DNA of 16,729 bases from Verrucomicrobiota bacterium (GTDB lineage Bacteria > Verrucomicrobiota > Verrucomicrobiia > Verrucomicrobiales > DEV007): positions 1 through 16,729 of the forward strand of contig JASFYY010000028.1 of NCBI GenBank assembly GCA_045046875.1, written 5' to 3'. The notes under the pieces were generated by a model. It saw nothing but the letters and a program-made list of their open reading frames with translations. It made no database searches and was not told where the DNA came from. This document shows positions 1-16,729 of the stretch, piece by piece (the stretch's first letter is position 1; every line of letters begins with the position of its first letter). The position numbers were made by a program, and so were the translations under genes.

Positions 1-170
1 TCTCACTTCCACCACGTGGCATGGATTGGCAATCCGTGTTCCCCCCAAACCATCCCAACCCCACGCAATACCATTACGTCTCACTTCCACCACGTGGCAC
101 GGATTGGCAATCCGTGTTCCCCCAAACCACCCCAACCCCACGCAATACCATTACGTCCCACATCCACCAC
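1..170 (+). repeat. Tandem ~78-bp repeat (2 full copies plus a partial third), each full copy carrying a GTGG-led REP-like palindrome
   Basis: Copies at 1-78 and 79-155, with a partial copy at 156-170. Each full copy has GTGG followed by CAYGGATTG-G-CAATCCGTG (20-38; 98-116, perfect in copy 2). The array may continue left of the window. Confidence 0.85.
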
Positions 171-243
171 AACATCCCCCCCAAAAAATGTCCCGCATTC
201 TAAAACCAACCATTAATCGCTCCTCATTCCAACATCCCACACC

Positions 244-1506: not shown

Positions 1507-1573
1507 ACAGCTCTCCCTTTTGCGGTTCAGGCAGCTTTGTTTGAACCGTGTCCCCCCTTCGCGCCCAAATAAA

Positions 1574-2971
1574 ATGCCCTCCAATCCCCCTCTTACTCCC
1601 GACTCCCCTTGGTATAAAAACGTCACACGCTACCAGTGGCTGGTTCTTTTCATCGCCTCGCTCGGCTGGATGTTTGACATTTTCGAAGGACAAATTTTTG
1701 TCACCACGATGAAAGAAGCCATGCCCTCCTTGTTGCCGGAAGGCACCCCGGAAGGAACCGTTGCCCGTTACAATGACACGGCATTCGCCCTTTTTCTTGC
1801 CGGAGGCGCTGTTGGCGGGGTCTTTTTTGGCATGCTCAGCGACCGTATCGGACGGGCCAAAACCTTGCTGATCACCATTCTGGTCTATTCCATTTTCACC
1901 ACTCTGACCGCCTTTGTCACCGCTCCCTGGCAAGTCATTGCCCTGCGTTTTCTGGTTGCTTTGGGGGTTGGTGGAGAATGGGCGGTTGCCGCCGCCATGG
2001 TAGCTGAAGTTTTCCCCGGTTTTGCCCGGGTCAAATCACTCGGCATCTTTCACGCCACCTCGGCACTCGGCTCCTATCTGGCAATTGCCGCAGGTTTCTT
2101 TATCGTCTCCAATGAAGCCCTGCGCAACCACCCGATCGACGGACTGAACTGGCGCCTATGTTTTCTGATCGGCGCCCTACCAGCTCTTCTCACCATCTGG
2201 ATTAGAATGAAACTCAAAGAACCCGAATCCTGGGTCAAAGCGCAACAGCGTGCTAAAACAGACCCCACCCAAAGCACCGGACGTTTATGGGATTTGTTCA
2301 GTCCACAACTGCGGCGACGAACCGCTACCGGCGTATGCCTCGCCGCAATCGGCCTGGCCACCTTCTGGGGAGTCAAAGTCCGCAGCCAGGAACTAATGCG
2401 CCAGGCAGCAGAACGCCAAATCATTGCCTCCGCAGTGATTCCTGAAACACCTTCGAATCATGATGATGATTCCACTCTCGACCACCACTACCAAACGCTC
2501 AAACGCTGGGAGATGACCGGGCTGTTTCTCATCATGACCGGCGGCATGATCGGCATGCTCTGTTTTGCCCCGCTCAGCGAACGCATCGGACGGCGCGGAG
2601 CTTTCCTCTTTTACCACCTTGGCGGTTTTCTCTCCGGAGTGCTACTGTTCACCTTCTTTGATCGACAATCGATTGCTTTCTACTGGCTGGCGCTACCTGT
2701 ATTTGGTTTTCTGGTCAGTGGCATGCATGCCGGATACGCCGTTTATTTCCCCGAGCTGTTCCCTGCCCGGCTACGCGCCACCGGAGCCGCGTTTTGTTTT
2801 AACGGCGGGCGTTTACTCGCCGTCCCGGTTCTACTGCTGCGTGGTTTCATGCGTGACGACCTCGGTTGGTCGTTGAGTAAAACCAGCGCCACCTTGAGCT
2901 GCCTCTTTTTACTCGGAGCCGTCGTGCTGTTATTTGCCCCGGAAACCAAGGGCGAAGAGCTGCCCGAGTGA
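1574..2971 (+). CDS. MFS transporter (sugar/organic-acid type)
   Basis: MFS motif A in both halves (GMLSDRIGRAK, APLSERIGRRG), plus GVGGEW and ELFPARLRATG. About 12 hydrophobic segments and a C-terminal PETKG. ATG at 1574 is preferred over the TTG at 1520. Confidence 0.93.
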   Translation: MPSNPPLTPDSPWYKNVTRYQWLVLFIASLGWMFDIFEGQIFVTTMKEAMPSLLPEGTPEGTVARYNDTAFALFLAGGAVGGVFFGMLSDRIGRAKTLLITILVYSIFTTLTAFVTAPWQVIALRFLVALGVGGEWAVAAAMVAEVFPGFARVKSLGIFHATSALGSYLAIAAGFFIVSNEALRNHPIDGLNWRLCFLIGALPALLTIWIRMKLKEPESWVKAQQRAKTDPTQSTGRLWDLFSPQLRRRTATGVCLAAIGLATFWGVKVRSQELMRQAAERQIIASAVIPETPSNHDDDSTLDHHYQTLKRWEMTGLFLIMTGGMIGMLCFAPLSERIGRRGAFLFYHLGGFLSGVLLFTFFDRQSIAFYWLALPVFGFLVSGMHAGYAVYFPELFPARLRATGAAFCFNGGRLLAVPVLLLRGFMRDDLGWSLSKTSATLSCLFLLGAVVLLFAPETKGEELPE

Positions 2972-2979
2972 ACTTCCCC

Positions 2980-3906
2980 TCAATCAAAACGAAAACCCTC
3001 GGCAGAAGGGTCGGCATGCCGCTCCACAAAATCCTTAAAACCCTGCCTGATTTTGCTAGTGATAGGTCCTGGCGCGGCAGGCAAGTCCACCCCGTCCACG
3101 CTCGCTATCCCTTGCACCTCGCGCAAGCTACCCGATAGAAACGCTTCTTGTGCTTTTTTCAAATCCCCCAAGGGCAAGTCTTTTTGCAACACCTCAATGC
3201 CCAGCTCACCGCACACATCCAATACCACCGAGCGAGTCACGCCTGCCAGGCATCCGCTAGCGAGCGTTGGCGTGATCAATTGTCCGTCGATCACCACAAA
3301 AATATTCGAACCGGTGCCTTCGCACAACATGCCCGCGTTGTTGGCAAATATCGCCTCATCAGCGCCCTGCTTTTTAGCCATCTTCAAAGCGATCACATTC
3401 TCGCCATACGATATCGATTTCACTCCGGCCAAAGCGCTGTTCTCGTTACGTGTGAACGGCACAGTGATGACTCTGCCCACTTCTTTGTAACTTGGAACTG
3501 CCGAGGCGGCGACTAACATCGTGTGCTCCGCTGTACCACGATCCGAACCTAGCGGGGAAAGCCCCCCTGTGATCGTCACTCGGATTCTAGCGCGATCATC
3601 AAATCCGTTCGCCTCCATCACCGCTCGCATCGCTTCGAGCAACTCTTGCTCATCGGGCAGGTGCAATCCTAGTTTGCTGGCAGAATGTTTCATTCTCACA
3701 AAATGACGCGCAGCGGCAAAAGGCTCCCCTTTGTAAGCGTTAAGCGTTTCAAAAATACCGTCCCCGACCAGAATCCCATGATCAAAAGGCGATACTCGCG
3801 CCTCATCGGCACTCATCAATTTCCCATTGCGCCACACTTGCGGGGTATCCACCCCACCGGCTTCACTTGAGGACTTGGTTTTTGATTCTTTTTCCGTAAA
3901 CTGCAT
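2980..3906 (-). CDS. Class IV PLP-dependent aminotransferase (branched-chain amino-acid aminotransferase / ADC lyase family)
   Basis: Motifs DHGILVGDGIFETL, GVKSISY (PLP lysine), EGTGSNIF and LAGVTR. IlvE, PabC and DAAT cannot be told apart by eye. Confidence 0.92.
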   Translation of the reverse strand: MQFTEKESKTKSSSEAGGVDTPQVWRNGKLMSADEARVSPFDHGILVGDGIFETLNAYKGEPFAAARHFVRMKHSASKLGLHLPDEQELLEAMRAVMEANGFDDRARIRVTITGGLSPLGSDRGTAEHTMLVAASAVPSYKEVGRVITVPFTRNENSALAGVKSISYGENVIALKMAKKQGADEAIFANNAGMLCEGTGSNIFVVIDGQLITPTLASGCLAGVTRSVVLDVCGELGIEVLQKDLPLGDLKKAQEAFLSGSLREVQGIASVDGVDLPAAPGPITSKIRQGFKDFVERHADPSAEGFRFD

Positions 3907-3974
3907 GAGTGGATCTGTTTTTTTGGGCTTTGGTAACCTGACGCAAAAGAGAGCAGATTGCCACTGTAATTTGC

Positions 3975-4886
3975 ATGACCGCTGCTGTTCTCACCACCAT
4001 CCTGTTTGCCCTGTCCGCTATTTGTGGTCAGCGCATCGCCATGGAGATGGGTAGCCTGCGCGCCAACTTCTGGCGGCTGCTGATCGCTACCAGTGTTCTG
4101 GGGCTGCTAGTGCTGTTGTTCTGGCGCGACTCCCTCCACCTCACTACCTTTGGCTGGCTTTTTCTCAGCGGCGCGGTGGGTTTTGGCCTCGGTGATATCG
4201 CCCTGTTCTATGCCTTCGAACGCATCGGCACCCGCTTGACTATTTTGATGAATCTCTGCCTCGCACCGATTTTTGCCGCCGTCGTCGAATTCCTCTGGCT
4301 GGGAAACGGCCTGCTGTCCCACCAATGGGTCGCCGTCGCAGTCATCCTCTTTGGAGTGGGGCTCTCAATCAACCCGGCAAAAACCGGTCGCAACACCTTG
4401 CGCCGTGGACGTTTTGCCCCCGGCATCATCGCCGGCATCATCGCGGGTTTTGGCCAGGGCTGCGGTGCGGTCATCAGTCGCCGCGCACAGCAAGCCGAAG
4501 AACTCATCGGCATGGATGTCAATGGTCTCAGCGAAGCTTTTCAACGGGTGCTGGCCGGCTTCATCATTGTGGCCATCCTCTTCGCACTGCGCCGCCCCTC
4601 CCGGCCTGCGGCAAAAATCATCAGCGACCAACCTGTGCTGACACCCCGCAAACTGTCCTTATGGCTAGTCGGATCCGCCCTGTTTGGTCCGGTCATCGGC
4701 GTGAGTTGTTTCCAGTGGGCGTTGCAATCGATGGAAAGCGCATTGGTGCTGTCCGTGGTATCCACTGCTCCCATCCTATTAATTCCAATGACCTGGTATC
4801 TGGATGGCGAACGGCCTCCAATCAAAACCCTCGTTGGAGCAATCATTGCAGTGCAGGGTGTGATCTATCTGCAACTGTATTCATAA
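3975..4886 (+). CDS. DMT/EamA family transporter
   Basis: 303 aa with ~10 TM segments in two repeats. LSGAVGFGLGDIALFYAFERIG and FGPVIGVS motifs are typical of EamA proteins. Confidence 0.9.
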   Translation: MTAAVLTTILFALSAICGQRIAMEMGSLRANFWRLLIATSVLGLLVLLFWRDSLHLTTFGWLFLSGAVGFGLGDIALFYAFERIGTRLTILMNLCLAPIFAAVVEFLWLGNGLLSHQWVAVAVILFGVGLSINPAKTGRNTLRRGRFAPGIIAGIIAGFGQGCGAVISRRAQQAEELIGMDVNGLSEAFQRVLAGFIIVAILFALRRPSRPAAKIISDQPVLTPRKLSLWLVGSALFGPVIGVSCFQWALQSMESALVLSVVSTAPILLIPMTWYLDGERPPIKTLVGAIIAVQGVIYLQLYS

Positions 4887-4913
4887 AAAATACCACCGTC
4901 CACTGAAGTCCCC

Positions 4914-6467
4914 CTACAACTGCCCCTCGACCGGTATCAAACGAAAAAAGAAATCAGAGATTCTTTGCGAAAACTTTCGTGCCGGTTGCCGGCTTACCAC
5001 CCCTTCGCTCGACTTCCAACGCAAACGCTGGTGCTCATCCAAATACACCTGCCAGGCATTTTCAGGAGACATCAACTGCTCTATTTTTTCCGCCAATTGA
5101 TTGGCCAGACCCGGTGAATCAATCAACATCCCGTTTTCCGTATTGATCTCCACAGAGCGGGGATCGAGATTCAATGAGCCGATGTAACAGAGGTCACGGT
5201 CTCTCACGATCATTTTTGCGTGCAGTGAAATGAAGTCAGCCTTCACCGGAGAATTATCACTCGAATGGCGAATCTTAGCAGAAGGATCATGGCGAAATTC
5301 ATACAGTTGTGCTCCCGCCTGTAAAATCCGACGGCGGTATTTTTTATAATGGCTGTGGGTGAGAGTATGATTGTTCGAAGCTAAGGAACCCGTAAGGAGC
5401 TTTATACTCACTCCTCGATCAGTGGCAGCTTTCACCTTCTGCAAAAGCTCTTCCGTAGGAATGAAATAGGGCGATACAATCAAAACCTCGTGTTTGCTAG
5501 GCAACCCCACTTCGGAAAGCATATCCAGTAGACGAGGCGCATCGCCCGTAGTTACTACCGGACTATCCTGCAAAAAACTCGCGCTACCATAATGCATAAG
5601 TGCGGGAAGGGATTGCAGCTCTTTTGTCCAATTTTTGCGCTCAAGCGGATGAGACGACATTTTAGCCGCGGAAGACTGCAAGGCCAAATTAACCGTTTTG
5701 CGAAACTTTACAATATCGCCGGCTGTCCCCTTTTCGCTGAACATATGACCGGGCACAGCGAGTTTTTGATTCCAGTATTGATCAAAAGCAGCCGATACTC
5801 TGGGCACCACTTTTCCGGTAGCCATCACATCCATATCACAGTTATTAAATTCCTGCGACAAGCCAAAATAAGCATCTCCTATATTCCTCCCTCCGACAAT
5901 CGCGAAGCGATTATCAACCACAAACAACTTATTGTGCATCCGGCGATTCAATTCTTTAAAATACAGCACAAACTCCATCATCGCTCCAATCCGGCTATGG
6001 CGAAAATCCGGATTATAAATTTTAAGCTCAATGTTAGGGTAACGCGACAAAGCCGCGATGGAGTGATTCTGGGCGGTCAAAAAAAGATCATCCACCAAAA
6101 TCCGAACCCGAACCCCACGGTCAGCCGCCTGTAACAAACGCTCAAACAATAACAGCGAACTTTCATCCGAGTCCCAAATGAAATACTGGATATCAATCGA
6201 TGTGGTTGCATGATCAAGCAAAGCCAGACGCCAATTCAAAGCGTCTCTATTATGATGCAATAACAAAAAGGCCGATTGATCTTTATCCTTTCCCGCAAGA
6301 ATGGCGCGACTGCTATCGACCAATGTGCCCTCAGGCGCGGGAGCCAAGGACAGCATAGGAGCGTGCTCTGGCAAGTCTTTGCGCGAAGCACAAGAAACCG
6401 CCAATAGCAACAGGTCAGCCGCCAGCACAAATCGGGATAAACAGGCGCACAAACGAAGTTTCGACAT
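4914..6467 (-). CDS. Phospholipase D family protein (ClsC/YmdC-like), probable lipoprotein
   Basis: Two HKD motifs (RRMHNKLFVVD..GGRNIG and SLHAKMIVRD..GSLNLDPRS..NTE) and SIDIQYFIW. Possible lipobox LAVSC. ATG at 6467 is used; a TTG at 6482 is the alternative start. Confidence 0.92.
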   Translation of the reverse strand: MSKLRLCACLSRFVLAADLLLLAVSCASRKDLPEHAPMLSLAPAPEGTLVDSSRAILAGKDKDQSAFLLLHHNRDALNWRLALLDHATTSIDIQYFIWDSDESSLLLFERLLQAADRGVRVRILVDDLFLTAQNHSIAALSRYPNIELKIYNPDFRHSRIGAMMEFVLYFKELNRRMHNKLFVVDNRFAIVGGRNIGDAYFGLSQEFNNCDMDVMATGKVVPRVSAAFDQYWNQKLAVPGHMFSEKGTAGDIVKFRKTVNLALQSSAAKMSSHPLERKNWTKELQSLPALMHYGSASFLQDSPVVTTGDAPRLLDMLSEVGLPSKHEVLIVSPYFIPTEELLQKVKAATDRGVSIKLLTGSLASNNHTLTHSHYKKYRRRILQAGAQLYEFRHDPSAKIRHSSDNSPVKADFISLHAKMIVRDRDLCYIGSLNLDPRSVEINTENGMLIDSPGLANQLAEKIEQLMSPENAWQVYLDEHQRLRWKSSEGVVSRQPARKFSQRISDFFFRLIPVEGQL

Positions 6468-6541
6468 AGGGTTTCCTAGCAAAGCAGGCTATCAAAGCAA
6501 GTGCAACCAAGTTCAGTGATCCCGCACCGCACCCAAGACCG

Positions 6542-8275
6542 TCAATTCAAAGCCACCAAAACCCTCACCGTCCCCGAAACCGGACGATTGCCTTCACTGG
6601 TAAGCAACAGATTGACCGTGCGGCCGTCGTCACTCAGTAACAACTGCCCACTGGCCATCGATTCGTTGTTGGGCTCTCCACTGCGGCCAAGCAGGTCAGC
6701 CGAGTTCACCAGCCGGTCTTCGGAAAAAATCACTCCGACAACCGGGTGGTCAAAAGTCATCGACGCTTCGAGCGTAGACTCAAGTTTACCATCCTTTCCC
6801 GGCTTGAACTCCAGCAAATAAGAACGCAAATGCCCCTTCTCAGTAAGCACCTCACCATTTTTGTTCCCATTCATCGAAACAAAATGCCCCTTTGACAAGG
6901 TATCCACCTCCAGTTGTTCGTTGTCAGCCAGCTTGAACTGGTCACGCTCCACCGTGACTCGCACCCGGTTATTTTCTGCCACCCGTTTGCTTTGATGCCC
7001 CGGCACAGCCACTTCGACCGTCCCTGTATTGGCCGCGACTCCAGACATCAACTCCCACGCCTTGGAAAAAGGGCGTGAATTAAAAGGGATATCCACCAGT
7101 TTATCACGGTCAAGATCAGCGCGAACGGCTTCAAAATGGTACAAGCGGCGTTTTTCTCCTTCGGCGGAATCTTGCAATTGTATTTCAGCATCGCCACTCA
7201 AAACTACCAGCTCAGCTTCTTTGTCATCCCTGACATCAATACCAAGCGTCGATCCCGAGCCATCCAGATTCAAACCCTTGGTTTCAAAAATAAAATTACG
7301 CTTGTTCCCGGCATTACCCCGGGTCACTGCCAGACCAGACAAAACATTTACCGTCCGCTTGCCTTTGATTTCAAATTCCGCCGGTCCCTCCACCGCCATC
7401 TCCGCACCTTCACGGAAACGCAGATGCACCGTGCCACTTTCCAAATGATAGAGCCCCTTCACCAGTCCGCCTTTTGAATCTGGAATCTGGCCCTCTTGCG
7501 CACTCCAAACTACATCACCCCCTTCAGCGACCACTTGTGCCCATTGCGGACTGAACAAAGACGCCGGCCGGGACTCCGGTTGCACATTCCACAACACCAA
7601 GCCAGTCAAAACCACTGCAGCCGCAGCTGCCAAAGCAGGCTTGAATAAAGCCGGCCAAACTTTACCCGGCCTTGCTGCTTGCTGTGGCAATGAGCCCGTA
7701 TCGGACAACGAGATGGATACCTCACGATTTGAACTCACCGGCTCCGCATCAGCCACCGGCAAATGCGCGTCCCACTCGATGATCTTCGAAGCCAGATCAT
7801 CAACAAAATGGTCTTCTTCAACTTCCGCCCACATCCGGGTCGATAGCGATTGCACAAAAGCCTCCTCACTTTTTGATGCAGACAGCGCCTGGGTCAGCAG
7901 CTCATCGAACTCAAGCTCATCACGCAGTTTTCTGACTTCAGCAGGTTGTTCTTGTAAAAAACGCAAATCAGAAGACAGGGCACCCTGTTCTAAGCTGCTC
8001 CCATCCACCACTTGCTGACGCAAGCGTTTGAAGTCATTATTTCCCAATGCGGCGACATTCAACTGCTCTGTCAAACCTGCTTCAAACACATCTTTTCCGC
8101 CACTAATAAAAGCCTGACGCAAAGATTCAGCAAAAAACAAAGCCTCGCGGACTTCCGCCCCACGCTTCTGATCAGCTGAACACAAACGAGCCAGCTCAGA
8201 ACGTTCATCCCCATCACTTTCCCCATCAAGCAAACGGGCCAGTAATTCTTCAAATCTTTCCTTTGAGTTATTCAT
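6542..8275 (-). CDS. Transmembrane anti-sigma factor with FecR-like periplasmic domain
   Basis: ATG 8275 overlaps the sigma stop codon (ATGA) and follows a GGAGGTG Shine-Dalgarno. N-terminal helical region (FEELLARLLDGE), one TM segment (ALAAAAAVVLTGLVLW), then a FecR-like LESGTVHLRFREGAEMAVEGPAEFEI. Confidence 0.82.
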   Translation of the reverse strand: MNNSKERFEELLARLLDGESDGDERSELARLCSADQKRGAEVREALFFAESLRQAFISGGKDVFEAGLTEQLNVAALGNNDFKRLRQQVVDGSSLEQGALSSDLRFLQEQPAEVRKLRDELEFDELLTQALSASKSEEAFVQSLSTRMWAEVEEDHFVDDLASKIIEWDAHLPVADAEPVSSNREVSISLSDTGSLPQQAARPGKVWPALFKPALAAAAAVVLTGLVLWNVQPESRPASLFSPQWAQVVAEGGDVVWSAQEGQIPDSKGGLVKGLYHLESGTVHLRFREGAEMAVEGPAEFEIKGKRTVNVLSGLAVTRGNAGNKRNFIFETKGLNLDGSGSTLGIDVRDDKEAELVVLSGDAEIQLQDSAEGEKRRLYHFEAVRADLDRDKLVDIPFNSRPFSKAWELMSGVAANTGTVEVAVPGHQSKRVAENNRVRVTVERDQFKLADNEQLEVDTLSKGHFVSMNGNKNGEVLTEKGHLRSYLLEFKPGKDGKLESTLEASMTFDHPVVGVIFSEDRLVNSADLLGRSGEPNNESMASGQLLLSDDGRTVNLLLTSEGNRPVSGTVRVLVALN

Positions 8276-8820
8276 CCCGCGTTCACCTCCCCGATTCGCT
8301 GTTGCACACACTTACGCAAAGCCTTGCGCACCCGTTCCAAACTTTTGCGGATTGCCGCTGCAGACATATTCATTTGCAAGGCAATATCCGGAGCCGACTG
8401 TTCGTTTTCATAACGGGCCTGGAGCATAGCCCTGCTTTTATCCGGCACTTTTTCCAAACATTCCTTCAGCGCCAATGCCTTTGCCTGCGCGCGATCCCCC
8501 TTTTCTTCCACTTCGTTTTCCGGTAGTGAAGAAGAAGCCACCAGCACCTCGGTGAGGTGGTCAGATAAAATACGTTTGCGGCGCGCATCCTTACGCCGCT
8601 CGTTGATCACCAAATTGCGGGCAATGCCGCGCACCCAGGCACCAAAATCACGACTTTCGTCAAAATCAGCCATTCTCTGATAGGCAATCACAAATGCCTC
8701 CTGCGCCAAATCATCCACCCACATCGGCGCTACCCCCAGACTCCTCACAAACCCGCGTAAACCCGCATGGTTTTCACGCACGTATTCTATAAATTTTTCA
8801 GATGAAAATTCGCCAGCCAT
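8272..8820 (-). CDS. ECF-type RNA polymerase sigma-70 factor
   Basis: Region 2 (VDDLAQEAF, DFGAWVRGIARN) and region 4 HTH (IALQMNMSAAAIRKSLERVRKALRKC). 182 aa, resembling the PVC-expanded ECF groups. Confidence 0.95.
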   Translation of the reverse strand: MAGEFSSEKFIEYVRENHAGLRGFVRSLGVAPMWVDDLAQEAFVIAYQRMADFDESRDFGAWVRGIARNLVINERRKDARRKRILSDHLTEVLVASSSLPENEVEEKGDRAQAKALALKECLEKVPDKSRAMLQARYENEQSAPDIALQMNMSAAAIRKSLERVRKALRKCVQQRIGEVNAG

Positions 8821-8954
8821 CAGTTATCAGGGTTTTTCTTGATCGCCCCGTTCATACCCTCTTGTTTGCATATCATCGACTGTGACAATTTTTTGCCCAA
8901 AAAGCACGCAAAACAGCATTTTTTCACTTTTATTAACTTTTTTACAAAAAAACC

Positions 8955-8984
8955 TTGACCCATTTATTGCAAAAAAGGTAGCAT
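8955..8984 (+). promoter_or_regulatory. Putative sigma70 promoter for the 9092 ORF
   Basis: TTGACC (8955-8960), 18 bp spacer, TAGCAT (8979-8984), with an A/T-rich UP-like tract upstream. Confidence 0.35.
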
Positions 8985-9091
8985 ATTTTAATAGAACACA
9001 ATGTAATTACACATTTTCCAAAAGATCAGGTTCAGCTCGGCTTGCGAACATTGATTTCTGGAAGAAGGAAAAACTCAACTAACCACAATTA

Positions 9092-9376
9092 ATGAGTATC
9101 ATCAAAACCGCATTTTTCTTACTGGTTCTCGTTTCCATCGCGATGGGAGGCATTTATGTGAAAAATAATGCATCTCTACATGGAGGAGCTAATCGCATTG
9201 CGCAAATAGCACCCATCATTATTGGAAATAATGGAGCAGTCAGATTCCCCAATCGGGTTCCTTCACCTGAAACCGTGTATCAGATCCAGACAGCCGTCCA
9301 AACAGACGATGCCCAGGCTCTGAATGACCTTTTGGTCAAACACCGTTTCTACGTGCTTCCTGGAAGAACGAACTAA
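9092..9376 (+). CDS. Small hypothetical protein with N-terminal signal/anchor helix
   Basis: 94-aa ORF with an ATG start and hydrophobic N-terminus (AFFLLVLVSIAMGGIYV). It fills an otherwise empty intergenic gap. No family recognised. Confidence 0.5.
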   Translation: MSIIKTAFFLLVLVSIAMGGIYVKNNASLHGGANRIAQIAPIIIGNNGAVRFPNRVPSPETVYQIQTAVQTDDAQALNDLLVKHRFYVLPGRTN

Positions 9377-9627
9377 GGCGCCCACATATACCCAAAAAGG
9401 GATCTTAAAATAAGATTCACAGATACATGCCGAGTTCCCGGTTCGGCGATGTGTGAAATTATTTCGACAAAAATAGCCCCTCTCTCATATTGACAACTGC
9501 TTGACATCAGGCGGCTGGCAATTTTTTTGTTTATAGGCCCTGCGTTTTTTGCTTTCGATCTTGGCAAGAGCTCTTTACATTCACTTCCGTAGTTTCTACT
9601 CCGCCGCAAATCCCCTTCTCAAAGCCC

Positions 9628-11949
9628 ATGAAGATCCGCCCCCCTTTTTTTGAATTTCCAACATTGTTAGCAGCCTCCTTCACTTTGATCGGCTTCTCCC
9701 CTTGCTTGATCGCCCAGGATGATCCTGACGATGTCGACCCTTTCACTGTCATCGACACCCCTCCGGTCGTGATTAAATCCAACGGCGCCCTCTTTGAAGA
9801 AGGGCGGATTGAAAAACTCACCGAAAAATCACTACCCTCTCTAGTAACCATCACCCATTCCAGCCGTGAAGGCAAAGTGCGCGGCACCGGCACCGGATTC
9901 ATCATTTCAGCTGATGGCCTGATCGCTACCAATCTGCACGTCATCGGCGATAGCCGTCCGATCCAAGTAGAGCTTCACGACGGTAGCACTTACGATGCCG
10001 TAGCAGTGCACGCCTGGGATCGCCGCGCCGATATCGCCATTCTCAAAATAGAAGCCAAACAAAAACTGCAAGCTCTGGAAATCGGCGACTCGGATAAAAT
10101 CAAACAGGGGCAAGCCATCGTTGCTTTTGGCAATCCCCGGGGTTTGCAATTCAGTGTCGTCAACGGAGTGGTTTCAGCCATCCGCAAACTAGAAGACGAT
10201 TTCACCATCGAAGGTGGTGCGCCCGACTTCCCTATGATCCAGGTAGCCATCCCCATTGAGATGGGCAACAGCGGAGGCCCCATCGTCGACCTCGATGGCA
10301 AGGTGCTGGGCATCGTGACGATCAAATCCCTGGTAACGCCTAATCTGGGTTTTGCCACCCCTGTCAACATTCTCAAGTCAATGATCGACAAACCTAACCC
10401 GGTTCCGATGAAAAGCTGGCTAACGATCGGCAACCTCGATCCCAACCAATGGCAGCCCATCATGGGCGGCGAATGGAAACAGCACGCAGGCATCATCACC
10501 ATCGACGCCTACGGCAGCGGATTTGGCGGACGCACCCTGTGCCTGTCTGAGCGCACCGTGCCCAAGCTGCCCTACGATGTGACGGTCAAAGTCAAACTTG
10601 ATGACGAAAGCGGTGCCGCAGGCCTGGCCTTTGCCTCCGATGGTGACGAAGTGCATTACGGCTTTTATCCCAGCAACGGCCAACTGCGTCTCACTCGCTT
10701 CGAAGGTCCCGACATCTATTCCTGGAAGATCCTCAAACAAGTTGAATCCGATGCCTATCAACCCGGCGAATGGAATCAAATCCGTGCCCGCATCGACAAA
10801 GACAAGATCAGCTGCTTTGTCAACGATCAGTTAGTTTTCGAAGTCAACGACGATCGCCTGCGCGGCGGCAAGGTCGGTTTGTGTCGTTTCCGTAAGCCGA
10901 CTGCCCATTTCAAAGCCTTCCAAGTGGGCTCGGACCTGGCAGAAAAACCCGTCGCCAAGGAATTGATGAGCGAGCTTTCCAAACAGATCAATACCTTTTC
11001 CCGCAATGGCGGTGACCGCCGTAAAGTCGCTGCCGCACTAGCCTCCCACGTCGTGCCCAGTCGGAAGCTATTAAGCCAGAAAGCCGCCGAGCTCGAAAGC
11101 CGGGCACTCGAACTGCGCAAGCTCACCGATATGATGAATGAAACCGACATCCAGCAAAGATTACTCAAGATTCTCGCGCTTGAAGAAAACCAGATCAATC
11201 TGCTCGAAGCGGGTCTATTGATTGCCAAACTCGCTAATGTTGAACTCGACATCGACGGTTACCTATTGGAATTCAAACGGCTTGCGGCAGCGGCTCGGCA
11301 AACCCTGTCCGAAGAATTTTCGGATCAGGAAAAAGTCGAGCGGTTAGGACGTTTCCTATTTCAAGAAAGTGGTTTTCACGGCAGTCGCGGAGAATATTAC
11401 CACCGCTCCAACAGCTTCCTCAATGAAGTGCTCGATGACCGCGAGGGCATTCCCATCACCCTCTCCGTGGTATATATCGAACTCGCCCGCATGCTCGACA
11501 TCCCCCACGTTTACGGCATCCCCCTGCCCGGACATTTTGTGGTGGGCTATCGGCCGACAAAAAAACAACTACAGATGTTCGACACCTTCGAAGCGGGCAA
11601 GGCCATCAGTCAAGTTGAGGCCGCCGACTTGGTAATGGGAACCACCGGCCAAACCCTCGACCCGCGTTCGCTCGAACCCGCAAGCAAACATAACATCGTG
11701 CTGCGCATGCTCAGTAACCTGATCAATGTTGAAATCAATAGCGATGACCCGACCAAATCCCTGCCTTACTTCGATTTGCTACTCGCCATCGAACCCGACC
11801 GCGCTCCGGAACGTTTCGAACGTAGCCGGGTGCGCTTCCAAGCCGACGACCGCGATGGCGCCATTGCCGACCTGCAATGGATGGTTGATAATGAACCCGC
11901 AGGTGTGAACATCGACATGATCCGCCAACTGCTGGAGCGCTTGCAGTAA
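9628..11949 (+). CDS. Exported trypsin-like serine protease fused to DUF1080-like, SirB1/transglutaminase-like and TPR domains
   Basis: Signal peptide. Catalytic triad in ATNLHV / DIAILKI / GNSGGP. DUF1080-like beta domain (GEWNQIRARI..ISCFVND..GKVGL), SirB1 motifs (NSFLNEVLDDREGIPITLS, PGHF, RMLSNL) and C-terminal TPR-like helices. Confidence 0.88.
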   Translation: MKIRPPFFEFPTLLAASFTLIGFSPCLIAQDDPDDVDPFTVIDTPPVVIKSNGALFEEGRIEKLTEKSLPSLVTITHSSREGKVRGTGTGFIISADGLIATNLHVIGDSRPIQVELHDGSTYDAVAVHAWDRRADIAILKIEAKQKLQALEIGDSDKIKQGQAIVAFGNPRGLQFSVVNGVVSAIRKLEDDFTIEGGAPDFPMIQVAIPIEMGNSGGPIVDLDGKVLGIVTIKSLVTPNLGFATPVNILKSMIDKPNPVPMKSWLTIGNLDPNQWQPIMGGEWKQHAGIITIDAYGSGFGGRTLCLSERTVPKLPYDVTVKVKLDDESGAAGLAFASDGDEVHYGFYPSNGQLRLTRFEGPDIYSWKILKQVESDAYQPGEWNQIRARIDKDKISCFVNDQLVFEVNDDRLRGGKVGLCRFRKPTAHFKAFQVGSDLAEKPVAKELMSELSKQINTFSRNGGDRRKVAAALASHVVPSRKLLSQKAAELESRALELRKLTDMMNETDIQQRLLKILALEENQINLLEAGLLIAKLANVELDIDGYLLEFKRLAAAARQTLSEEFSDQEKVERLGRFLFQESGFHGSRGEYYHRSNSFLNEVLDDREGIPITLSVVYIELARMLDIPHVYGIPLPGHFVVGYRPTKKQLQMFDTFEAGKAISQVEAADLVMGTTGQTLDPRSLEPASKHNIVLRMLSNLINVEINSDDPTKSLPYFDLLLAIEPDRAPERFERSRVRFQADDRDGAIADLQWMVDNEPAGVNIDMIRQLLERLQ

Positions 11950-11987
11950 ACACTGCCCTTCAGCATTTTCCTTTCAACCTTATCAAC

Positions 11988-13589
11988 ATGGATTCCTCCC
12001 CGCTCACTCGCAGAAAATTTGTCGAAACCTCTCTGGCCGCCGGACTGCTCGGTGCCATCCGGCCGCTGTCCCGCGCCCAAGCACAGAATGAGAAGCAAAG
12101 CTCGTCTTACCAACTTTACTGGGGAGATTTGCACAACCACAACGCCATCGGTTATGGCAAAGGCTCGTTAGAGAGATCGATAGAAATCGCCCAGGAACAC
12201 CTGGATTTTTTCGCTTTCACCGGGCATGCTTCATGGCACGACTTGCCCAAGATGCCCGGTGACCGCCACATGAAGTGGGTCAACGGTTTTAAAGTCCACA
12301 GTGATCACTGGAAAAAAACCCGTGGCCTCATTCAAGAAGCCAACAACGATACGTTTGCCGCCTTGTTGGGATACGAATGGCACTCCAGTCAGTTTGGCGA
12401 CTACTGCATGATCTTTCCAGATGATCAGCCCGACCTCTATTTGCCCGATCATGTGGAAAAATTGCTGAAGTTTTCCGGTGAAAAAAACGCTCTGGCCATT
12501 CCTCACCACCTGGCCTACGCCCGTGGCTGGCGCGGCGCCAACTTTGACCACTTCAAAGCCTCGGCTTCGCCGGTGGTAGAGATTTTCTCCGAACACGGCT
12601 GCAGTGAATCGGTCAACGCCCCCGGTGATTTCATCCGCCACTCGATGGGCGGCCGCTCCACCCACAACACCGTTGAACGCCAACTGGCTCAAGGTTTGCG
12701 TTTTGGTTTTGTCGCCTCAACCGATGATCATCGGGGTTACCCAGGAGCTTACGGTGAAGGCCTGGTTGCGGTGTGGGCCAGTGACCCCTCCCCCGCAGCC
12801 ATCGTCGATGCGGTGCGCAAACGCCGCACTTACGCCATCACCGGCGACCGCATTGAAGTGGATTTTACTCTTAACGATCAAGCCATGGGCTCCGAGCTGA
12901 AAGCCACCAATGACCGCCAGATCGACATCAAGGTCAGCGCTCCGGACAGCATCAAGATGATCGAACTGATCCGCAACGGCCGGATTATCAAACGTCACTT
13001 CCCGGAAGACAGTGCCAGTCTGCCCGCAGCCCTGCCCGGTCAGGTGCAATGCCGCCTGCGTTACGGCTGGGGGCCGTGGGGCGATCTCAGTCTCGGCCGC
13101 ATCTGCGATTGGGATATGGACATCCACCTGGACGGCGGACATTTTGTCAATGCCATCCCCTGTTTCCAATCCGCCCCTTTCGATAGCAAACGACGGGATC
13201 GATTAAGAGTGGTGACCCCCTCCCACCTCAAACTGGAATCTCACACCACCCGGGTCAAAGCTTTTGCCGAAGACCCCACCAAGGCGATTGTGCTGGAAAT
13301 CGACGCCAAACGCCCCGACGCCTCCCTGACCATTGACCTGCACAGCCCCACCGCAGAAAAACTCACCACCCCCTTAAAGGATCTACAACAGGACAATCAA
13401 ATCCATTTCACCGGCACCTTCACCGCCGAAAGTTTTTCCCTGCAACGTTTGGTCGCCCCCTCGGAACGCAGCGCCACCATCCGCTGGCAAGATCAACGCC
13501 AAGATCCCAAACAAGCGGAATATTATTACGTCCGAGTGCAACAACACAACGGCCACATGGCCTGGTCCAGCCCAATTTGGGTGGGGTGA
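11988..13589 (+). CDS. Tat-exported PHP-fold metallohydrolase (DUF3604 / CehA-McbA-like)
   Basis: Twin-arginine signal LTRRKFVETSLAAG...AQA. PHP ligand motifs WGDLHNH, FTGH, GYEW, IPHH and STDDH. C-terminal YYYVRVQQ..GHMAWSSPIWV. Confidence 0.85.
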   Translation: MDSSPLTRRKFVETSLAAGLLGAIRPLSRAQAQNEKQSSSYQLYWGDLHNHNAIGYGKGSLERSIEIAQEHLDFFAFTGHASWHDLPKMPGDRHMKWVNGFKVHSDHWKKTRGLIQEANNDTFAALLGYEWHSSQFGDYCMIFPDDQPDLYLPDHVEKLLKFSGEKNALAIPHHLAYARGWRGANFDHFKASASPVVEIFSEHGCSESVNAPGDFIRHSMGGRSTHNTVERQLAQGLRFGFVASTDDHRGYPGAYGEGLVAVWASDPSPAAIVDAVRKRRTYAITGDRIEVDFTLNDQAMGSELKATNDRQIDIKVSAPDSIKMIELIRNGRIIKRHFPEDSASLPAALPGQVQCRLRYGWGPWGDLSLGRICDWDMDIHLDGGHFVNAIPCFQSAPFDSKRRDRLRVVTPSHLKLESHTTRVKAFAEDPTKAIVLEIDAKRPDASLTIDLHSPTAEKLTTPLKDLQQDNQIHFTGTFTAESFSLQRLVAPSERSATIRWQDQRQDPKQAEYYYVRVQQHNGHMAWSSPIWVG

Positions 13590-13602
13590 TAATGGGGAGA
13601 GA

Positions 13603-13613
13603 AATACACCCAG
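13603..13613 (-). repeat. Short att-like copy of the tRNA-Arg 3' end
   Basis: AATACACCCAG at 13603-13613 is identical to 16655-16665 (13/14 when extended by 3 nt). It begins 14 bp after the last backbone gene ends. Confidence 0.6.
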
Positions 13614-13645
13614 AAGATGATATTCCGTTTTGAGAATCATGAGCC

Positions 13646-13930
13646 ATGAACAAAAAAGGTGAAAATTTTATGCCGTGGGAAGATGTTGACCGCTGTCGCA
13701 AAGACAAGCGCATCCAAACAGGTCGCATCGCAGTGGAGACGGTTGCCACCTTCAAAGCTGATGCTGAAGCAACATGCCTCGAGTGCGGGAAAGTCTCAGA
13801 TGAATTGCAGTGGTTCTACTTCCGCAGCCCTGCATTCACTTGGAAACACTTATGCGGGCGTAAAGGCGTCATGGTCGTCTGTGATAATTGTAGGCGACAG
13901 GTTGCGTTTTTCTTAACCATAATGAGTTGA
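13646..13930 (+). CDS. Small Cys-rich hypothetical protein (CxxC...C...CxxC, putative zinc ribbon)
   Basis: CLECG...WFYFRSPAFTWKHLCGRKG..VCDNCRRQVAFF. 94 aa; the start could also be the Met at 13670. Confidence 0.7.
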   Translation: MNKKGENFMPWEDVDRCRKDKRIQTGRIAVETVATFKADAEATCLECGKVSDELQWFYFRSPAFTWKHLCGRKGVMVVCDNCRRQVAFFLTIMS

Positions 13931-14022
13931 AAACCGAGTTAGTTAAAAGCGGTCGCGCTCAAGGTGACGTTAGGTTCGGATCACCGAATGGCAATATTGA
14001 CCACATGCTAAGAGAGAGGGGT

Positions 14023-14119
14023 CCTTGAAAACAAAGAGCTTACTATACGGGGAGGAAAATTGGTAAAGGTGGAGTTCTCTAATTCTGATAATCCTCTAAT
14101 TCAAGGACTGCCCCCTTCT
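14023..14119 (+). repeat. Direct repeat copy A
   Basis: 14023-14088 matches 16319-16384 at 64/66 nt. After 17 extra bp (14089-14105), GACTGCCCCCTTCT (14106-14119) matches 16385-16398. Confidence 0.95.
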
Positions 14120-14330
14120 GCGCCCCCTTCTGTGCCCCCTTCTGCGGAAGCGGGGCGGGTGCGGTATTCAGCTGTGAGTTTGCCTCGCTCCATGAAATTA
14201 ATTTCACTTAGTTTATCGAGAAGGCGTTTGATATCTTTGGATGAATTTTGTTTCATAGCGGTCTATGACATTGTCAAGACTAAGTAAAAAGCGGGCATTA
14301 ACCAATATTTAATTTTTCTGTTTTACACCC
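14101..14330 (-). mobile_element. IS remnant: putative left end plus truncated accessory ORF (DUF6788-like, ISKra4/ISLre2-type elements)
   Basis: Minus-strand 51-aa ORF at 14256-14101: MKQNSSKDIKRLLDKLSEINFMERGKLTAEYRTRPASAEGGTEGGAEGGSP. MERGKL..EYR.RP recalls the small ORF preceding such transposases. Upstream, GGGTGTAAAACAGAAAAA (from 14330) resembles a GGGTG-type terminal IR. No transposase is present. Confidence 0.55.
14109..14144 (+). repeat. Three tandem 12-bp units YGCCCCCTTCTG
   Basis: tgcccccttctg / cgcccccttctg / tgcccccttctg at 14109, 14121 and 14133. Confidence 0.9.
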
Positions 14331-14409
14331 CTAGTGTGCAATTGTAATGATTGGTGATTGACATGGGTTTCAATAATCGTTTATCTATCTGTGTAAGATG
14401 ATATAAGTA

Positions 14410-14736
14410 ATGAAGGAAGCAAGATTCCATAGCGGGCGAAATATTTTTCGAACTGCCGGTAGATACTTGGCTGTGGTGGTCTTGCTGTATGTCGTGTTGG
14501 CGACTTCATTGTCGCAATTGCATGATCAGGCGCACGCCGAACAAGGAGATTCTCACAAGGATTGTGTGATTTGCCTGATCTTAGCAGGTTCAGTCGAAAT
14601 GCCTGATTTTCCTTTTGGTCAGGTGACCGCACTGGGCAAAGTAGGAGAAATTGAGTTTTGCCCAGTCGCGCTTTCACTTCCAAGCCAGATGTTCTGGTCG
14701 GTGATGGCAGCTCGCCCTCCTCCAACTGTGTCCTGA
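14410..14736 (+). CDS. DUF2946/CruR-like leader protein (TM helix, His cluster, CxxC, C-terminal RPPP)
   Basis: Hydrophobic segment at aa 20-34, then HDQAHAEQGDSHKD-CVIC (C52, C55), and R102-P-P-P105 followed by only three residues before the stop. It lies directly upstream of an outer-membrane metal-uptake candidate. Confidence 0.78.
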   Translation: MKEARFHSGRNIFRTAGRYLAVVVLLYVVLATSLSQLHDQAHAEQGDSHKDCVICLILAGSVEMPDFPFGQVTALGKVGEIEFCPVALSLPSQMFWSVMAARPPPTVS

Positions 14737-14744
14737 CACAGTTG
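14723..14744 (+). promoter_or_regulatory. Perfect inverted repeat over the leader ORF stop codon (candidate attenuator hairpin)
   Basis: CAACTGTGTC (14723-14732), CT, GACACAGTTG (14735-14744). It begins within the last Pro codon of RPPP. Confidence 0.6.
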
Positions 14745-14937
14745 ATCACTTTTGATCCCTCCCTGCAGTTCTGGGAGTTGAATCATGTGCTCCACTTTTG
14801 GAGTCGTGTTGAAATGGCTGCGCTAGTCATGGTGCTGGTTTCCACATCTGGAAGAAAAAGCCATATAACGAAGAGCATAAGGTGTGCCCTCTTTTAAAAT
14901 AACTTTAATAATAACTATGAATTTTTTTCACAAGACA

Positions 14938-16242
14938 ATGAAGGCCTTAATTAATGCTGTGTGTGTTCTGCTGGTAGCGATGAGCTTGCTTGTATTACCG
15001 TTGTGTGCAGAAGAGGTTGAGCACGAGAGTGCACATGCACATCAGAGCGAGCATGAACACGATCATGAAAAGCATGCGCATGTAGAGGGGGTTTTGGAAT
15101 CCATTCAGGATTCAGATTTTTATGTTGATGATTCGTTGTCCGAGCGCACCGGCCTTGGTCGGTATCTATTTGGACATATACATGCCTACACGGTTTTTGG
15201 GGATTCAACGGCGAATCCTGCTGATTTGGCACTTGGCGATCATGATCCTAATAATCAGGTAGGTGTGCAGGCGATCGAGCCAAGTCTGACTTTACAGGCA
15301 GGATGGTTGCAGGGGTATATCAATGTGTCTGGTGTCACTGATGGTTCAGGTGATTTTTTCTACGGTATTGAAGAGGGTTTTCTGAAGTTGGTGGATCTGC
15401 CTTATGGCTTTGAGTTGCGCGGAGGTCAGTTTTTGAATTCTATGGGTTTCCAAAATGCTAGGCATAACCATGATTGGAAGTTTGTCGATCAAACTTTGGT
15501 TAATGGTCGCTTTTTGAATGAAGGAGAATTGTTCACTCAAGGGGGCGAAATCAGATGGAAGCTTCCAGTATTGGAGGATTCACAGATGATTGTTTCGGTT
15601 GGTGGAATGCCGGCTCATTCTCACGGAGAGGATGCTCATGATGAAGGTGGCGAGTTTGAATCGGAAGGTGCTGATTTCACCGATACCTTGAGCGGAGCGA
15701 ATTGGGTGAGTCGTTTTAAGATGGATGAAGAGAGGACAGTGATCGCTACGGTATCTGGGGTATGGGGGCGTAATAAGTTTGGTCGCACTAATCAAGTTTA
15801 TGGGGTGGGGTTCGAATATCTATGGAAACAAGATGTTCACGGAGGTAAGTATTTACGATGGCGCAATGAGGCAATGTATCGAAATATCAAAGCTGTGTCG
15901 GGTCATTTGCCAGGCGAGGCCCCTCAGGCTGGGGGTCAAAAGAAGAGTTTAGCTGATTTTGGGGAATTTGGAATCTACTCGATGTTGCTTTATGGTTTTA
16001 ACGAGCATATTGAAACTGGCGTGCGTGGTGGCTGGGTTGCGGGCATTGATCAGATGGTATTGGAGCAGAGATTTCGCATGTCTCCAGTAATCACATGGTA
16101 CCTGAATGAAAAGAAAACGTTGCAGACGAGGTTGCAATATAACTTGGATTATTTAAGTGGGAGTGGTGCAGAGCATTCGATCTGGTTGCAGATCGGATTC
16201 AACTGGGGGGCGAGAGGGGCTCATCATGGGCACGCACATTGA
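14938..16242 (+). CDS. His-rich outer-membrane beta-barrel, putative Zn/Ni/Co uptake porin (family often labelled zinc-regulated outer membrane receptor)
   Basis: Signal peptide MKALINAVCVLLVAMSLLVLPLCA. His tracts at the N-terminus, internally and at the C-terminus (GAHHGHAH). Family-like motifs HDP, IEEGF..LP.G..LRGGQF..G.QN..H.H.W.FVD, and terminal amphipathic strands (TRLQYNLD, IWLQIGFNWG). Alternative starts at 14917 and 14884. Confidence 0.8.
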   Translation: MKALINAVCVLLVAMSLLVLPLCAEEVEHESAHAHQSEHEHDHEKHAHVEGVLESIQDSDFYVDDSLSERTGLGRYLFGHIHAYTVFGDSTANPADLALGDHDPNNQVGVQAIEPSLTLQAGWLQGYINVSGVTDGSGDFFYGIEEGFLKLVDLPYGFELRGGQFLNSMGFQNARHNHDWKFVDQTLVNGRFLNEGELFTQGGEIRWKLPVLEDSQMIVSVGGMPAHSHGEDAHDEGGEFESEGADFTDTLSGANWVSRFKMDEERTVIATVSGVWGRNKFGRTNQVYGVGFEYLWKQDVHGGKYLRWRNEAMYRNIKAVSGHLPGEAPQAGGQKKSLADFGEFGIYSMLLYGFNEHIETGVRGGWVAGIDQMVLEQRFRMSPVITWYLNEKKTLQTRLQYNLDYLSGSGAEHSIWLQIGFNWGARGAHHGHAH

Positions 16243-16318
16243 AATTTGATTCACGACTGGTCAGCGCGGCGAGTTTTCGACTGTATTGAATCGGTGAATG
16301 GTCGGGAGAAGGGTCAGC

Positions 16319-16398
16319 CCTTGAAAACAAAGAGCTTACTATACGGGGAGGAAAATTGGTGAAGGTGGAGTTCTCTGATTCTGAGACTGCCCCCTTCT
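16319..16398 (+). repeat. Direct repeat copy B
   Basis: 64/66 identity to 14023-14088, followed directly by GACTGCCCCCTTCT. It lacks the 17-bp segment of copy A and has only one 12-bp-type unit. Confidence 0.95.
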
Positions 16399-16400
16399 TC

Positions 16401-16646
16401 AATTTTGTATTCAATCGAATCCAGCGAAGCCTCCCGCGTTTTGACGCCCCTCAAATAAAGAAACAAGTCTCCATTCACAAAATCAATCAGATCCGGCCCA
16501 GTGAGAGCGGCATCGTAGTCCAGCTTCCCCTCATAATCCTTCGGCGCCGCCCACACCGACCAGCGATACGTTTCATCAAGAATAAAAGTCATAGGACTCC
16601 CCCACCAGCTCTACCTTCTGAGCTTTTTGAAGGTTTGTTCGAACAT
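16401..16646 (-). pseudogene. hsdM: Type I restriction-modification methyltransferase (HsdM) N-terminal relic
   Basis: ATG at 16646 gives MFEQTFK. A second frame gives KAQKVELVGESYDF, and a third gives ILDETYRWSVWAAPK..GKLD..AALTGPDLIDFVNGDLFLYLRG..SIEYKI. These match, in order, the recalled N-terminus of a common HsdM family, with an internal deletion, frameshifts and a 3' truncation at repeat B. Confidence 0.8.
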
Positions 16647-16656
16647 AAACAAACAA

Positions 16657-16702
16657 TACACCCAGTAGGAATCGAACCTACATCTATGGTTCCGGAAACC
16701 AC
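16657..16702 (-). tRNA. 3' half of tRNA-Arg(CCG): att-site fragment, not an intact tRNA
   Basis: Minus strand reads GTGGT-TTCCGGA-ACCAT (anticodon arm, CCG at 16695-16693), AGAT, GTAGG-TTCGATT-CCTAC (T arm), TGGGTGT-A (acceptor 3' strand). The 27 nt upstream contain no D-arm and no acceptor 5' strand. Confidence 0.85.
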
Positions 16703-16729
16703 CGGAGAGGGTTGCTGGAATGCGGATTC

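Follow-up and report, generated by a model that had tools for sequence, protein, structure and literature searches.

What does a short open reading frame (ORF) do when it stands directly ahead of an outer-membrane porin and combines a hydrophobic helix, a cluster of His and Cys residues and a C-terminal Arg-Pro-Pro-Pro (RPPP) motif? The question is raised by a 16,729-nucleotide stretch of a Verrucomicrobiota bacterium (GCA_045046875.1, contig JASFYY010000028.1, positions 1 to 16,729 of the forward strand), referred to here as the window. The leader ORF, of 108 aa (14410..14736, + strand), precedes a His-rich porin of 441 aa (14917..16242, + strand). Our analysis indicates that the leader is real and probably zinc-responsive. 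It would act in cis as an arrest leader of the CruR type that keeps a zinc-uptake porin on under zinc scarcity, a reading to which we give a probability of about 0.55.

Anatomy and Family of the Leader

The ORF list and homologue searches identify the leader as a divergent DUF2946/CutF-like upstream ORF. Behind a basic N-region lies a hydrophobic signal or anchor helix, residues 19-37 (14464..14520, +), as evidenced by hydropathy (Kyte-Doolittle 19-mer mean 2.05), alignment and AlphaFold2, which predicts a helix from 11 to 45. This N-terminus is predicted to be an export signal or transmembrane (TM) segment, and cleavage and anchoring are alike compatible with the prediction. Clade conservation points to a putative metal site of H38, H42, H49, C52 and C55 (14521..14574, +) and to a putative arrest segment, W96-x5-R102-P-P-P (14695..14724, +), whose RPPP, beginning with R102, occupies 14713-14724. 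The 46 residues between C55 and R102 form a spacer that AlphaFold2 predicts to be disordered. The helix, the His and Cys residues, the spacer and RPPP were claimed in a preliminary description of this DNA and are present as claimed. The combination is rare by chance: among 28,501 stop-to-stop frames of at least 70 aa in the genome, 56 end in R[AGPSD]PP, and the leader is the only one of these with a CxxC 43-49 residues upstream. Three leader differences are listed for the strain in run X2, all of them synonymous among the differences listed, and a strain variant (P0121) carries two amino-acid changes.

Homologues were sought in 187 porin-bearing loci, some of them redundant, with a profile built from upstream ORFs chosen by motif together with five database proteins. 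A leader homologue is found in 33 of the 187, always on the same strand and directly upstream of the porin, and the gap in E-values is clean, with nothing between 4.5e-5 and 0.18. The Cys-to-Arg spacing of 26 non-redundant leaders is 44 (10 leaders), 45 (13), 46 (2) or 48 (1), so that 25 of 26 fall within 44-46. The co-occurrence of leader and porin with a conserved RxPP and spacer, proposed earlier as a check, is therefore borne out. Among 28 aligned homologues C52, the Arg and the Pro-Pro pair are invariant and the hydrophobic block is kept; the spacer sequence is unconserved despite its near-fixed length. The 26 porin-linked homologues end in RAPP (16), RGPP (6), RPPP (2) or RDPP (2). The distant homologues keep the first Cys and have at least three His in 25 of 26 cases, and the second Cys is absent in 16 of 26. 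The His3-Cys2 site of the preliminary description is thus complete in the window's leader but is not family-wide.

The six closest leaders form a clade with invariant H38, H42, C52, C55, G60, W96, R102, P104 and P105; five end in RPPP and one in RAPP. RPPP therefore appears to mark a small clade within the leader family. Where DNA is at hand the porin lies downstream (three of three members), and two further members share their source with porin homologues, a pairing that is suggestive only. Leader homologues occur in 38 of 401 phylum genomes, and a search of 401 order-level genomes revealed no additional RPPP-clade locus. The homologues are Verrucomicrobiales, in keeping with the PVC host suggested at the outset.

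How the leader relates to DUF2946 (PF11162) can be judged from several comparisons. The window's leader does not match the model even at E 1 (cut-off 23.7 bits), and no DUF2946 match was found anywhere in the genome. A same-genus orthologue, which is 36% identical to the leader over 75 aa (E 1e-11) and occupies the same place before the orthologous porin, scores 26.1 bits, above that cut-off; the HMM check suggested earlier thus fails for the leader itself and succeeds for its orthologue. Of the 28 aligned homologues, 8 match with an E-value of 1 or less and one exceeds the cut-off, and the leader's Atlas look-alikes include DUF2946 clusters at 0.95. The DUF2946 features present in the leader are CxxC (C52xxC55), the spacer of 46 and an N-terminal export signal or TM segment; in the family the Cys-to-RAPP spacing is 45 ± 1-2 residues, and this spacing is functional in CruR, according to PMC9426467. 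Because the orthologue passes the cut-off and the spacing equals that of the family, the leader is, by sequence, a divergent member of the CruR/CutF superfamily, homologous rather than analogous. The earlier proposal of an "analogous but distinct" system is abandoned.

Other searches set the limits of this relationship. Pfam, NCBIfam and Rfam gave no match for leader, porin or gap. A single-protein metagenome scan found no relative, a query made from an alignment did recover relatives, and a word-indexed search with a two-sequence leader alignment returned only the clusters of both inputs. Leaders of a further set (L195-L224), which stand before ZnuD-like receptors, end in RGPP (10), CGPP (9), RAPP (7) or HAPP (4) with spacings of 43-48. 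The main text of PMC10987492 does not mention CGPP, which may represent an arrest core not yet described.

Putative Arrest Motif and Known Systems

The leader shares several features with CruR (Bp2923 of Bordetella pertussis, DUF2946/PF11162; PMC9426467, with its arrest described in PMC12992588). Both have an export signal, CxxC and a terminal RxPP, both have a spacer of 45-46 residues, both are the first gene before an outer-membrane uptake protein, and the gap is long in both (162 nt in CruR, 180 nt here). They differ in the end of the peptide, which is RPPP with an invariant W at -6 and an extra conserved His in the leader and RAPP in CruR. The target also differs, being a plug-less 16-strand porin here and a TonB-dependent transporter in CruR. 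Finally, the context is zinc-type and Verrucomicrobiales with no C>G bubble seen, whereas that of CruR is copper. A CruR-type leader is defined as the first gene of a copper-homeostasis operon; the present leader is first, but its surroundings are zinc-type.

CutF of Rhodobacter capsulatus (PMC9973294, bioRxiv 2025.02.05.636593) belongs to the same broad family and, as described there, also has a signal sequence, a Cys motif and a C-terminal PPP. CutF has CxxxC and G-P-P-P without an Arg at -1, in contrast to CxxC and RPPP in the leader. Its PPP motif is EF-P dependent and its signal sequence is required (bioRxiv 2025.02.05.636593). The secretion monitors ApdA, ApdP and SecM share the RxPP core, but in the sources covered they are without a metal site and precede sec or yidC genes.

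The RPPP ending has itself been approached by mutation. According to PMC12992588, A-to-P mutants of ApdP in B. subtilis retain near-wild-type arrest (2.4 versus 1.9 units), and A-to-P mutants of ApdA and ApdP in E. coli retain partial arrest. RPPP may thus be regarded as an already-tested RxPP variant, and the idea of linking RPPP to EF-P has precedent in CutF and ApdA/ApdP. The third Pro would be dispensable, because the orthologue ends in RAPP. In the source data of the same study, the mean bias in Verrucomicrobiota proteomes is 0.15 for RAPP and 0.10 for RGPP, a sign that both are avoided there. By this analogy, stalling of the ribosome at the leader is very probable. The earlier claim of a cis-type arrest leader paired with a metal porin gains support from the conserved pairing, motif and spacer.

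The published RAPP/RGPP screen comes close to the present finding. At least nine rows of its source data show the same architecture and downstream annotation, one of them annotated DUF2946. These rows are listed without discussion, and the likeness of their receptors to the window's porin is by shared name alone. The RPPP leader lies outside the scope of that screen, whose main text contains neither "zinc" nor "RPPP". The leader or its relatives may be listed among the 5,334 CutF-like proteins of PMC9973294 File S1 or in the source data of PMC12992588. The literature covered, which leaves most subscription papers outside, holds no tested zinc-sensing arrest leader and no exchange of Zur for a leader.

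The Downstream Porin

Structure prediction and alignments support the His-rich beta-barrel foreseen downstream. The best start is at 14917, giving 441 aa with 25 His. The AlphaFold2 model (pLDDT 85.6) is a 16-strand barrel without a plug, its best structural matches are 16-strand porins, and the closest is the phosphate porin OprP (PDB 2o4v; Z 27.4, rmsd 3.7, 300 aligned, 12% identity). OprP has an arginine ladder, in contrast to the His-rich loops and invariant HxH of the window's porin (H183 and H185 are invariant in 108 sequences), and the fold reveals no substrate. The porin matched no family in Pfam or NCBIfam, and no relative by sequence was found in the PDB. A TonB-dependent receptor was considered and ruled out, as 16 long strands and 441 aa do not fit a 22-strand barrel with a plug. 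The label "zinc-regulated TonB-dependent receptor" is widely used and also covers this plug-less porin. The porin is single-copy in the genome, in which no ZnuD-like receptor was found (best E 2.6e-6).

Which Metal

Three lines of evidence point to zinc: neighbours, targets and a regulatory box. A ZnuA/AztC-type binding protein is encoded in 106 of the 187 porin loci, an ABC ATPase in 63 and a permease in 60, and a ZnuA/AztC-type gene lies directly behind an orthologous leader-porin pair. Of 30 loci with leader homologues across the phylum, 21 have the leader before a receptor whose best NCBIfam match is ZnuD (partial sequences, below the NCBIfam cut-off), five before this porin family and three before other TonB receptors; in one the frame was mis-picked. 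The same His-rich class of leader may head zinc porins and ZnuD-like receptors in other Verrucomicrobiota lineages.

The third line comes from porin loci without a leader. A TAATGCAA-N5-TTGCATTA palindrome scoring at least 13 is present in 82 of 103 such non-redundant loci and in none of 123 control stretches inside porin genes, the matrix having been trained on 72 of those 82 loci. The predicted Zur box of Desulfovibrio znuABC-zur is ATGCAAC-N3-GTTGCAT in the account given in PMC545781, and both share a TGCAA-N5-TTGCA core, which suggests that the palindrome is a Zur box. In five relatives the strict pattern occurs at six sites: three head zigA, one is on the same contig as the porin and ~6 kb ahead of it, and two are low-scoring. 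Three of the four high-scoring sites therefore head zigA; two of these genes exceed the NCBIfam cut-off and the third was read from an internal start. No copper-handling gene is found among the annotated neighbour clusters of the porin loci.

A CruR-type leader with another ligand, Mn, Co, Ni or Cu, is nevertheless the best of the alternatives, though an improbable one. CxxC is invariant in the clade and is the copper sensor of CruR, the neighbouring binding proteins and ATPases also match MntC/MntA models, and His-only CutF-like clusters have been linked to Ni/Co genes in PMC9973294. Against this alternative stand the Zur-type box and zigA linkage of the porin family, the 21 of 30 targets with ZnuD as best match, the lack of annotated copper neighbours and the single Cys with at least three His in most homologues. 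The earlier suggestion of a non-copper metal is upheld and can be narrowed to zinc, which is the best-supported metal; Mn, Co, Ni and Cu retain some chance for the leader itself. We consider it likely that zinc is the leader's ligand.

Proposed Arrest and Attenuation

A transcript covering leader and porin would begin ahead of the leader. A putative -35 hexamer, TTGACA, lies at 14358..14363 (+), and in all three clade loci with DNA (L001, L003 and L124) the same hexamer is found 45-52 nt upstream of the leader start, against a genome background of 1.4% per 100 nt. No clean -10 box was found for this promoter, and no promoter match was found within the leader-porin gap.

A 9-bp hairpin spans the leader stop codon and is followed by a weak U-run (14723..14744, +). 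Its folding energy is -12.4 kcal/mol, compared with -4.7 ± 2.0 kcal/mol for shuffles (2 of 1000 shuffles reach it), in a folding window picked post hoc. A shorter hairpin begins at the same codon in L124. Beyond it, the intergenic region (14737..14916, +) is 180 nt long to the first ATG and 201 nt to the second ATG at 14938; it has an A/T-rich start region and no Zur-type box, and the porin start is without a Shine-Dalgarno sequence and predicted to be mostly unpaired. The preliminary description had seen a structured gap of ~200 nt. One hairpin over the stop stands out, but the gap as a whole shows no significant excess of structure over shuffled sequence (z -0.54 for 14737-14950; z -1.53 for 14690-14950). 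No rut-like C>G bubble was seen near the leader stop; porin-stop controls are equally C-rich. Folding 14 distant leader ends together in RNAalifold yielded no informative consensus. Rho and EF-P are both encoded in the genome; the Rho_N model alone gave no match there, and the full rho model did. There are two Rho-like genes (G000:C89:51332-52543 and C4:34035-35129), one above and one below the TIGR00767 cut-off.

Distant leaders offer a separate observation. A group comprising L109, L139, L150, L156, L159, L162, L168, L172, L182 and others (alignment A6) has a conserved V-x-G-stop ending that forms the 5' arm of a helix across the stop codon. In this helix 85.7% of cells are paired and 3 of 13 pairs show two-sided changes, a covariation reached by 4 of 500 shuffles; the structure was drawn from the same sequences, in a second attempt.

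The proposed mechanism takes as its template the CruR model and toeprint, in which metal releases the arrest and Rho then terminates (PMC9426467 and PMC12992588). With a single transcript starting at the conserved TTGACA, the helix of residues 19-37 would target the nascent chain to the membrane. By analogy with the CruR toeprint, the ribosome would stall once the final Pro codons of RPPP occupy its P and A sites, which would place the His/Cys cluster about 50 residues out, just beyond the tunnel. In this position the ribosome would mask the 5' arm of the hairpin at the stop codon and block Rho, allowing read-through of the 180-nt gap into the porin. Placement of these sites follows from the general lengths of the ribosomal tunnel and footprint. 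Zinc binding would fold the His/Cys segment, the resulting pull would free the stall, the ribosome would terminate and transcription would end before the porin. Regulation in this metal-off direction through transcription attenuation appears quite likely, again by analogy. Sensing in the periplasm and sensing in the cytoplasm are both compatible with a CruR-type leader.

A leader working as CutF does would instead sense metal in the periplasm during co-translational export, with EF-P relieving a stall at PPP and the metal altering translation of the porin. CutF provides the precedent, with its PPP, its need for a signal sequence and its EF-P dependence; the hydrophobic helix is kept in all homologues, RPPP is present in five of six clade members, and about 50 residues could span tunnel and membrane together. 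However, CutF, as described, melts a hairpin at the start site across a short gap and thereby induces an oxidase for detoxification, whereas the leader's target is an importer behind a long gap with no occluded Shine-Dalgarno sequence. Because the porin start is 180 nt away, lacks a Shine-Dalgarno sequence and is mostly unpaired, a stalled ribosome would have no start-site hairpin within reach to melt. Unfolding of stem-loops is restricted to short gaps in the view of PMC9973294. An importer induced by its own metal also makes little sense, and we consider a CutF-type leader unlikely.

A still less probable proposal is that the peptide is a trans-acting, membrane-anchored metal chaperone, or that the stall monitors secretion only, and that the porin has its own promoter. 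A membrane anchor next to metal ligands would suit a chaperone, and the porin exists without a leader at L002 and L111. Against this proposal, every homologue found comes first, with an outer-membrane uptake gene directly behind it; the spacer combines a fixed length with free sequence and predicted disorder; and no promoter match was found between leader and porin.

A Possible Replacement for Zur

At leader-bearing loci a Zur-type box was sought on both sides of the leader. All 24 loci lack it in the stretch leading to the porin, all 21 lack it ahead of the leader, and no new palindrome was found upstream of 52 leaders. At the window locus the best box scores are -2.5 and -4.1, compared with 13-29 for real sites, and the best score in a genome-wide scan is 17.4, with no site before an evident zinc gene. 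A Fur-family gene (alignment A4) occurs in 10 of the 187 porin loci. It is below all NCBIfam cut-offs, Fur models outscore Zur, and "Zur-like" rests on its position in porin-znu loci. An A4 orthologue (E below 1e-47) is found in 27 of 31 other family genomes, one of the 27 having contributed to the query, and in none of six genomes of the window's genus, five of them more than 90% complete. Neither an A4 orthologue nor a close zigA (best 31%) was found in the window genome, which is 94.7% complete. Among 29 other leader-bearing genomes, 24 have A4 matches of 1e-10 to 1e-25 and five have none.

A tree of the porins was built with 126 rows. The group of five to which the window's porin belongs (three with a leader, two with neither control; support 89) lies inside a group of 36 (support 97), 30 of which have the box. 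The 21 other leader loci in the tree form a distant group. A Zur regulon is DNA-level repression; at the window locus the box is absent, and in the genus neither the box nor its candidate regulator was found. Since the genus lacks a Zur-like regulator and its porin loci lack the box, the leader may stand in for a lost Zur repressor, taking the role that repressor and box have at the same porin in sister genera. The loss of box and regulator lends independent support to zinc and sharpens the hypothesis. A more tentative extension, which we hold to be possible rather than probable, is that Zur and its boxes disappeared from the genus, that a W-x5-RPPP leader came to stand before a formerly Zur-controlled porin, that zinc uptake is now governed by stalling alone, and that leader and box are interchangeable modules of one regulon across Verrucomicrobiota.

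The proposed mechanism has to be weighed against several observations, beginning with the missing DUF2946 match of the leader itself, the unremarkable folding of the gap and the lack of a rut-like bubble. CxxC is a copper motif in CruR, as PMC9426467 describes. The genome's znuA-type genes are on other contigs, leaving the porin orphaned from znuABC, and the substrates of cluster A-I binding proteins include Mn and Fe as well, with MntC the second-best match. L002 and L111, two of the five porins of the window's clade, have neither leader nor box, so unregulated states persist. In G157 box, leader and regulator occur together before a ZnuD-like gene, so box and leader are not mutually exclusive, and in G023 the box is present and no A4 orthologue was found. 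Finally, regulator loss at the level of the genus is one event, and the support for the five-row clade is only 89.

Two of these loci have features of their own. L111 has the same upstream neighbour gene as leader-bearing L003, yet no leader lies between. L195, in G157, has a Zur-type box scoring 27.8, then a HAPP leader and then the ZnuD-like receptor, that is, two control layers on one gene.

The tRNA-Arg Islet

Leader and porin lie in a 3.07-kb islet (13603-16668) bounded by tRNA-Arg(CCG) 3'-end sequence. Its GC content of 46%, compared with 51% for the genome, is at about the 6th percentile of equal-sized windows. One boundary (16656..16701, -) is the 3' 46 nt of tRNA-Arg(CCG), with 100% identity to the tRNA-Arg that closes contig C142, and contigs of four runs continue past it into the remaining tRNA. 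The other is a remnant of the same 3' end (13603..13616, +; 13 of 14 positions match 16655-16668), where GC falls from 56% to 46% and where a related strain (run X4) has a longer degenerate tRNA end. The last 28 nt of the window (16702-16729) are not tRNA and would stem either from an assembly join or from another integrated element that ends here.

A dispersed repeat of ~100 nt, detected by nhmmer, flanks leader and porin, with a left copy at 14010..14120 (+; 66-nt core 14023-14088) and a right copy at 16305..16393 (+; core 16319-16384, 97% identical). It has complementary ends and 12 nhmmer matches in the genome, including G000 contigs C99 (five), C15, C162 and C105, and related runs hold many variant copies. 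On C99 the copies separate genes that we take to encode a PIN-like toxin, an alcohol dehydrogenase and a Na/Pi transporter-like protein, an arrangement resembling a cassette array or a miniature inverted-repeat transposable element (MITE). At the end of the left repeat (14109-14146) are three 12-nt tandem units, and one strain contig lacks 24 nt there. An hsdM fragment, from the M subunit gene of a type I restriction-modification system, follows the right copy (16402..16592, -); in tblastn it matches annotated N-6 DNA methylases with 62% identity at E 6e-18. Two neighbouring ORFs were also seen. A 94-aa ORF inside the islet (13646-13930, +) has two CxxC pairs and weak zinc-finger matches and is skipped in the run X2 contig. 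Directly left of the islet, a 533-aa protein (11988-13589, +) has at its N-terminus what looks by eye like a twin-arginine signal, and its CehA/McbA-like metallohydrolase domain falls just short of the cut-off.

The description of this region as mobile DNA holds insofar as it is a variable ~3-kb islet behind a tRNA-Arg 3' end, but no integrase is found among the window ORFs. In contigs of other runs the flanks differ on both sides, yet promoter hexamer, leader and porin are kept together; the two best-matching contig sets are hydrothermal-vent metagenomes of two studies, and one of them may be the source itself. Judging from the porin tree, the leader-porin module is native to the genus and moved away from znuA. 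That the leader type is genuine and the window's copy a passenger on a decaying islet, with no useful regulation, is the least probable reading, because the adjoining hsdM fragment and repeats, the strain-variable islet and the missing znuABC are outweighed by two intact ORFs with all conserved residues, by the joint retention of leader, porin and hexamer in contigs of two other runs, by the synonymous X2 changes and by a porin that is the only genome copy where no ZnuD-like receptor was found. No RNA dataset was found among those listed with the locus, which is uninformative on expression.

Implications

No riboswitch is known for Cu or Zn, and protein-based leaders may fill this gap, as suggested in PMC9426467. 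The two characterised leaders, CruR and CutF, both sense copper. By analogy with CruR, the leader described here probably stalls the ribosome translating it, and binding of a metal, most likely zinc, would lift the stall; a zinc-responsive leader, if true, would extend the arrest mechanism to a second metal and offer a short construct amenable to testing. The pairing of leader and porin is already visible in the published source data; the loss of box and regulator is the new part. The exchange of box for leader within a single porin family is a separate, genomic line of evidence for the ligand; if true, it would be a natural case of a transcription factor replaced by translation arrest.

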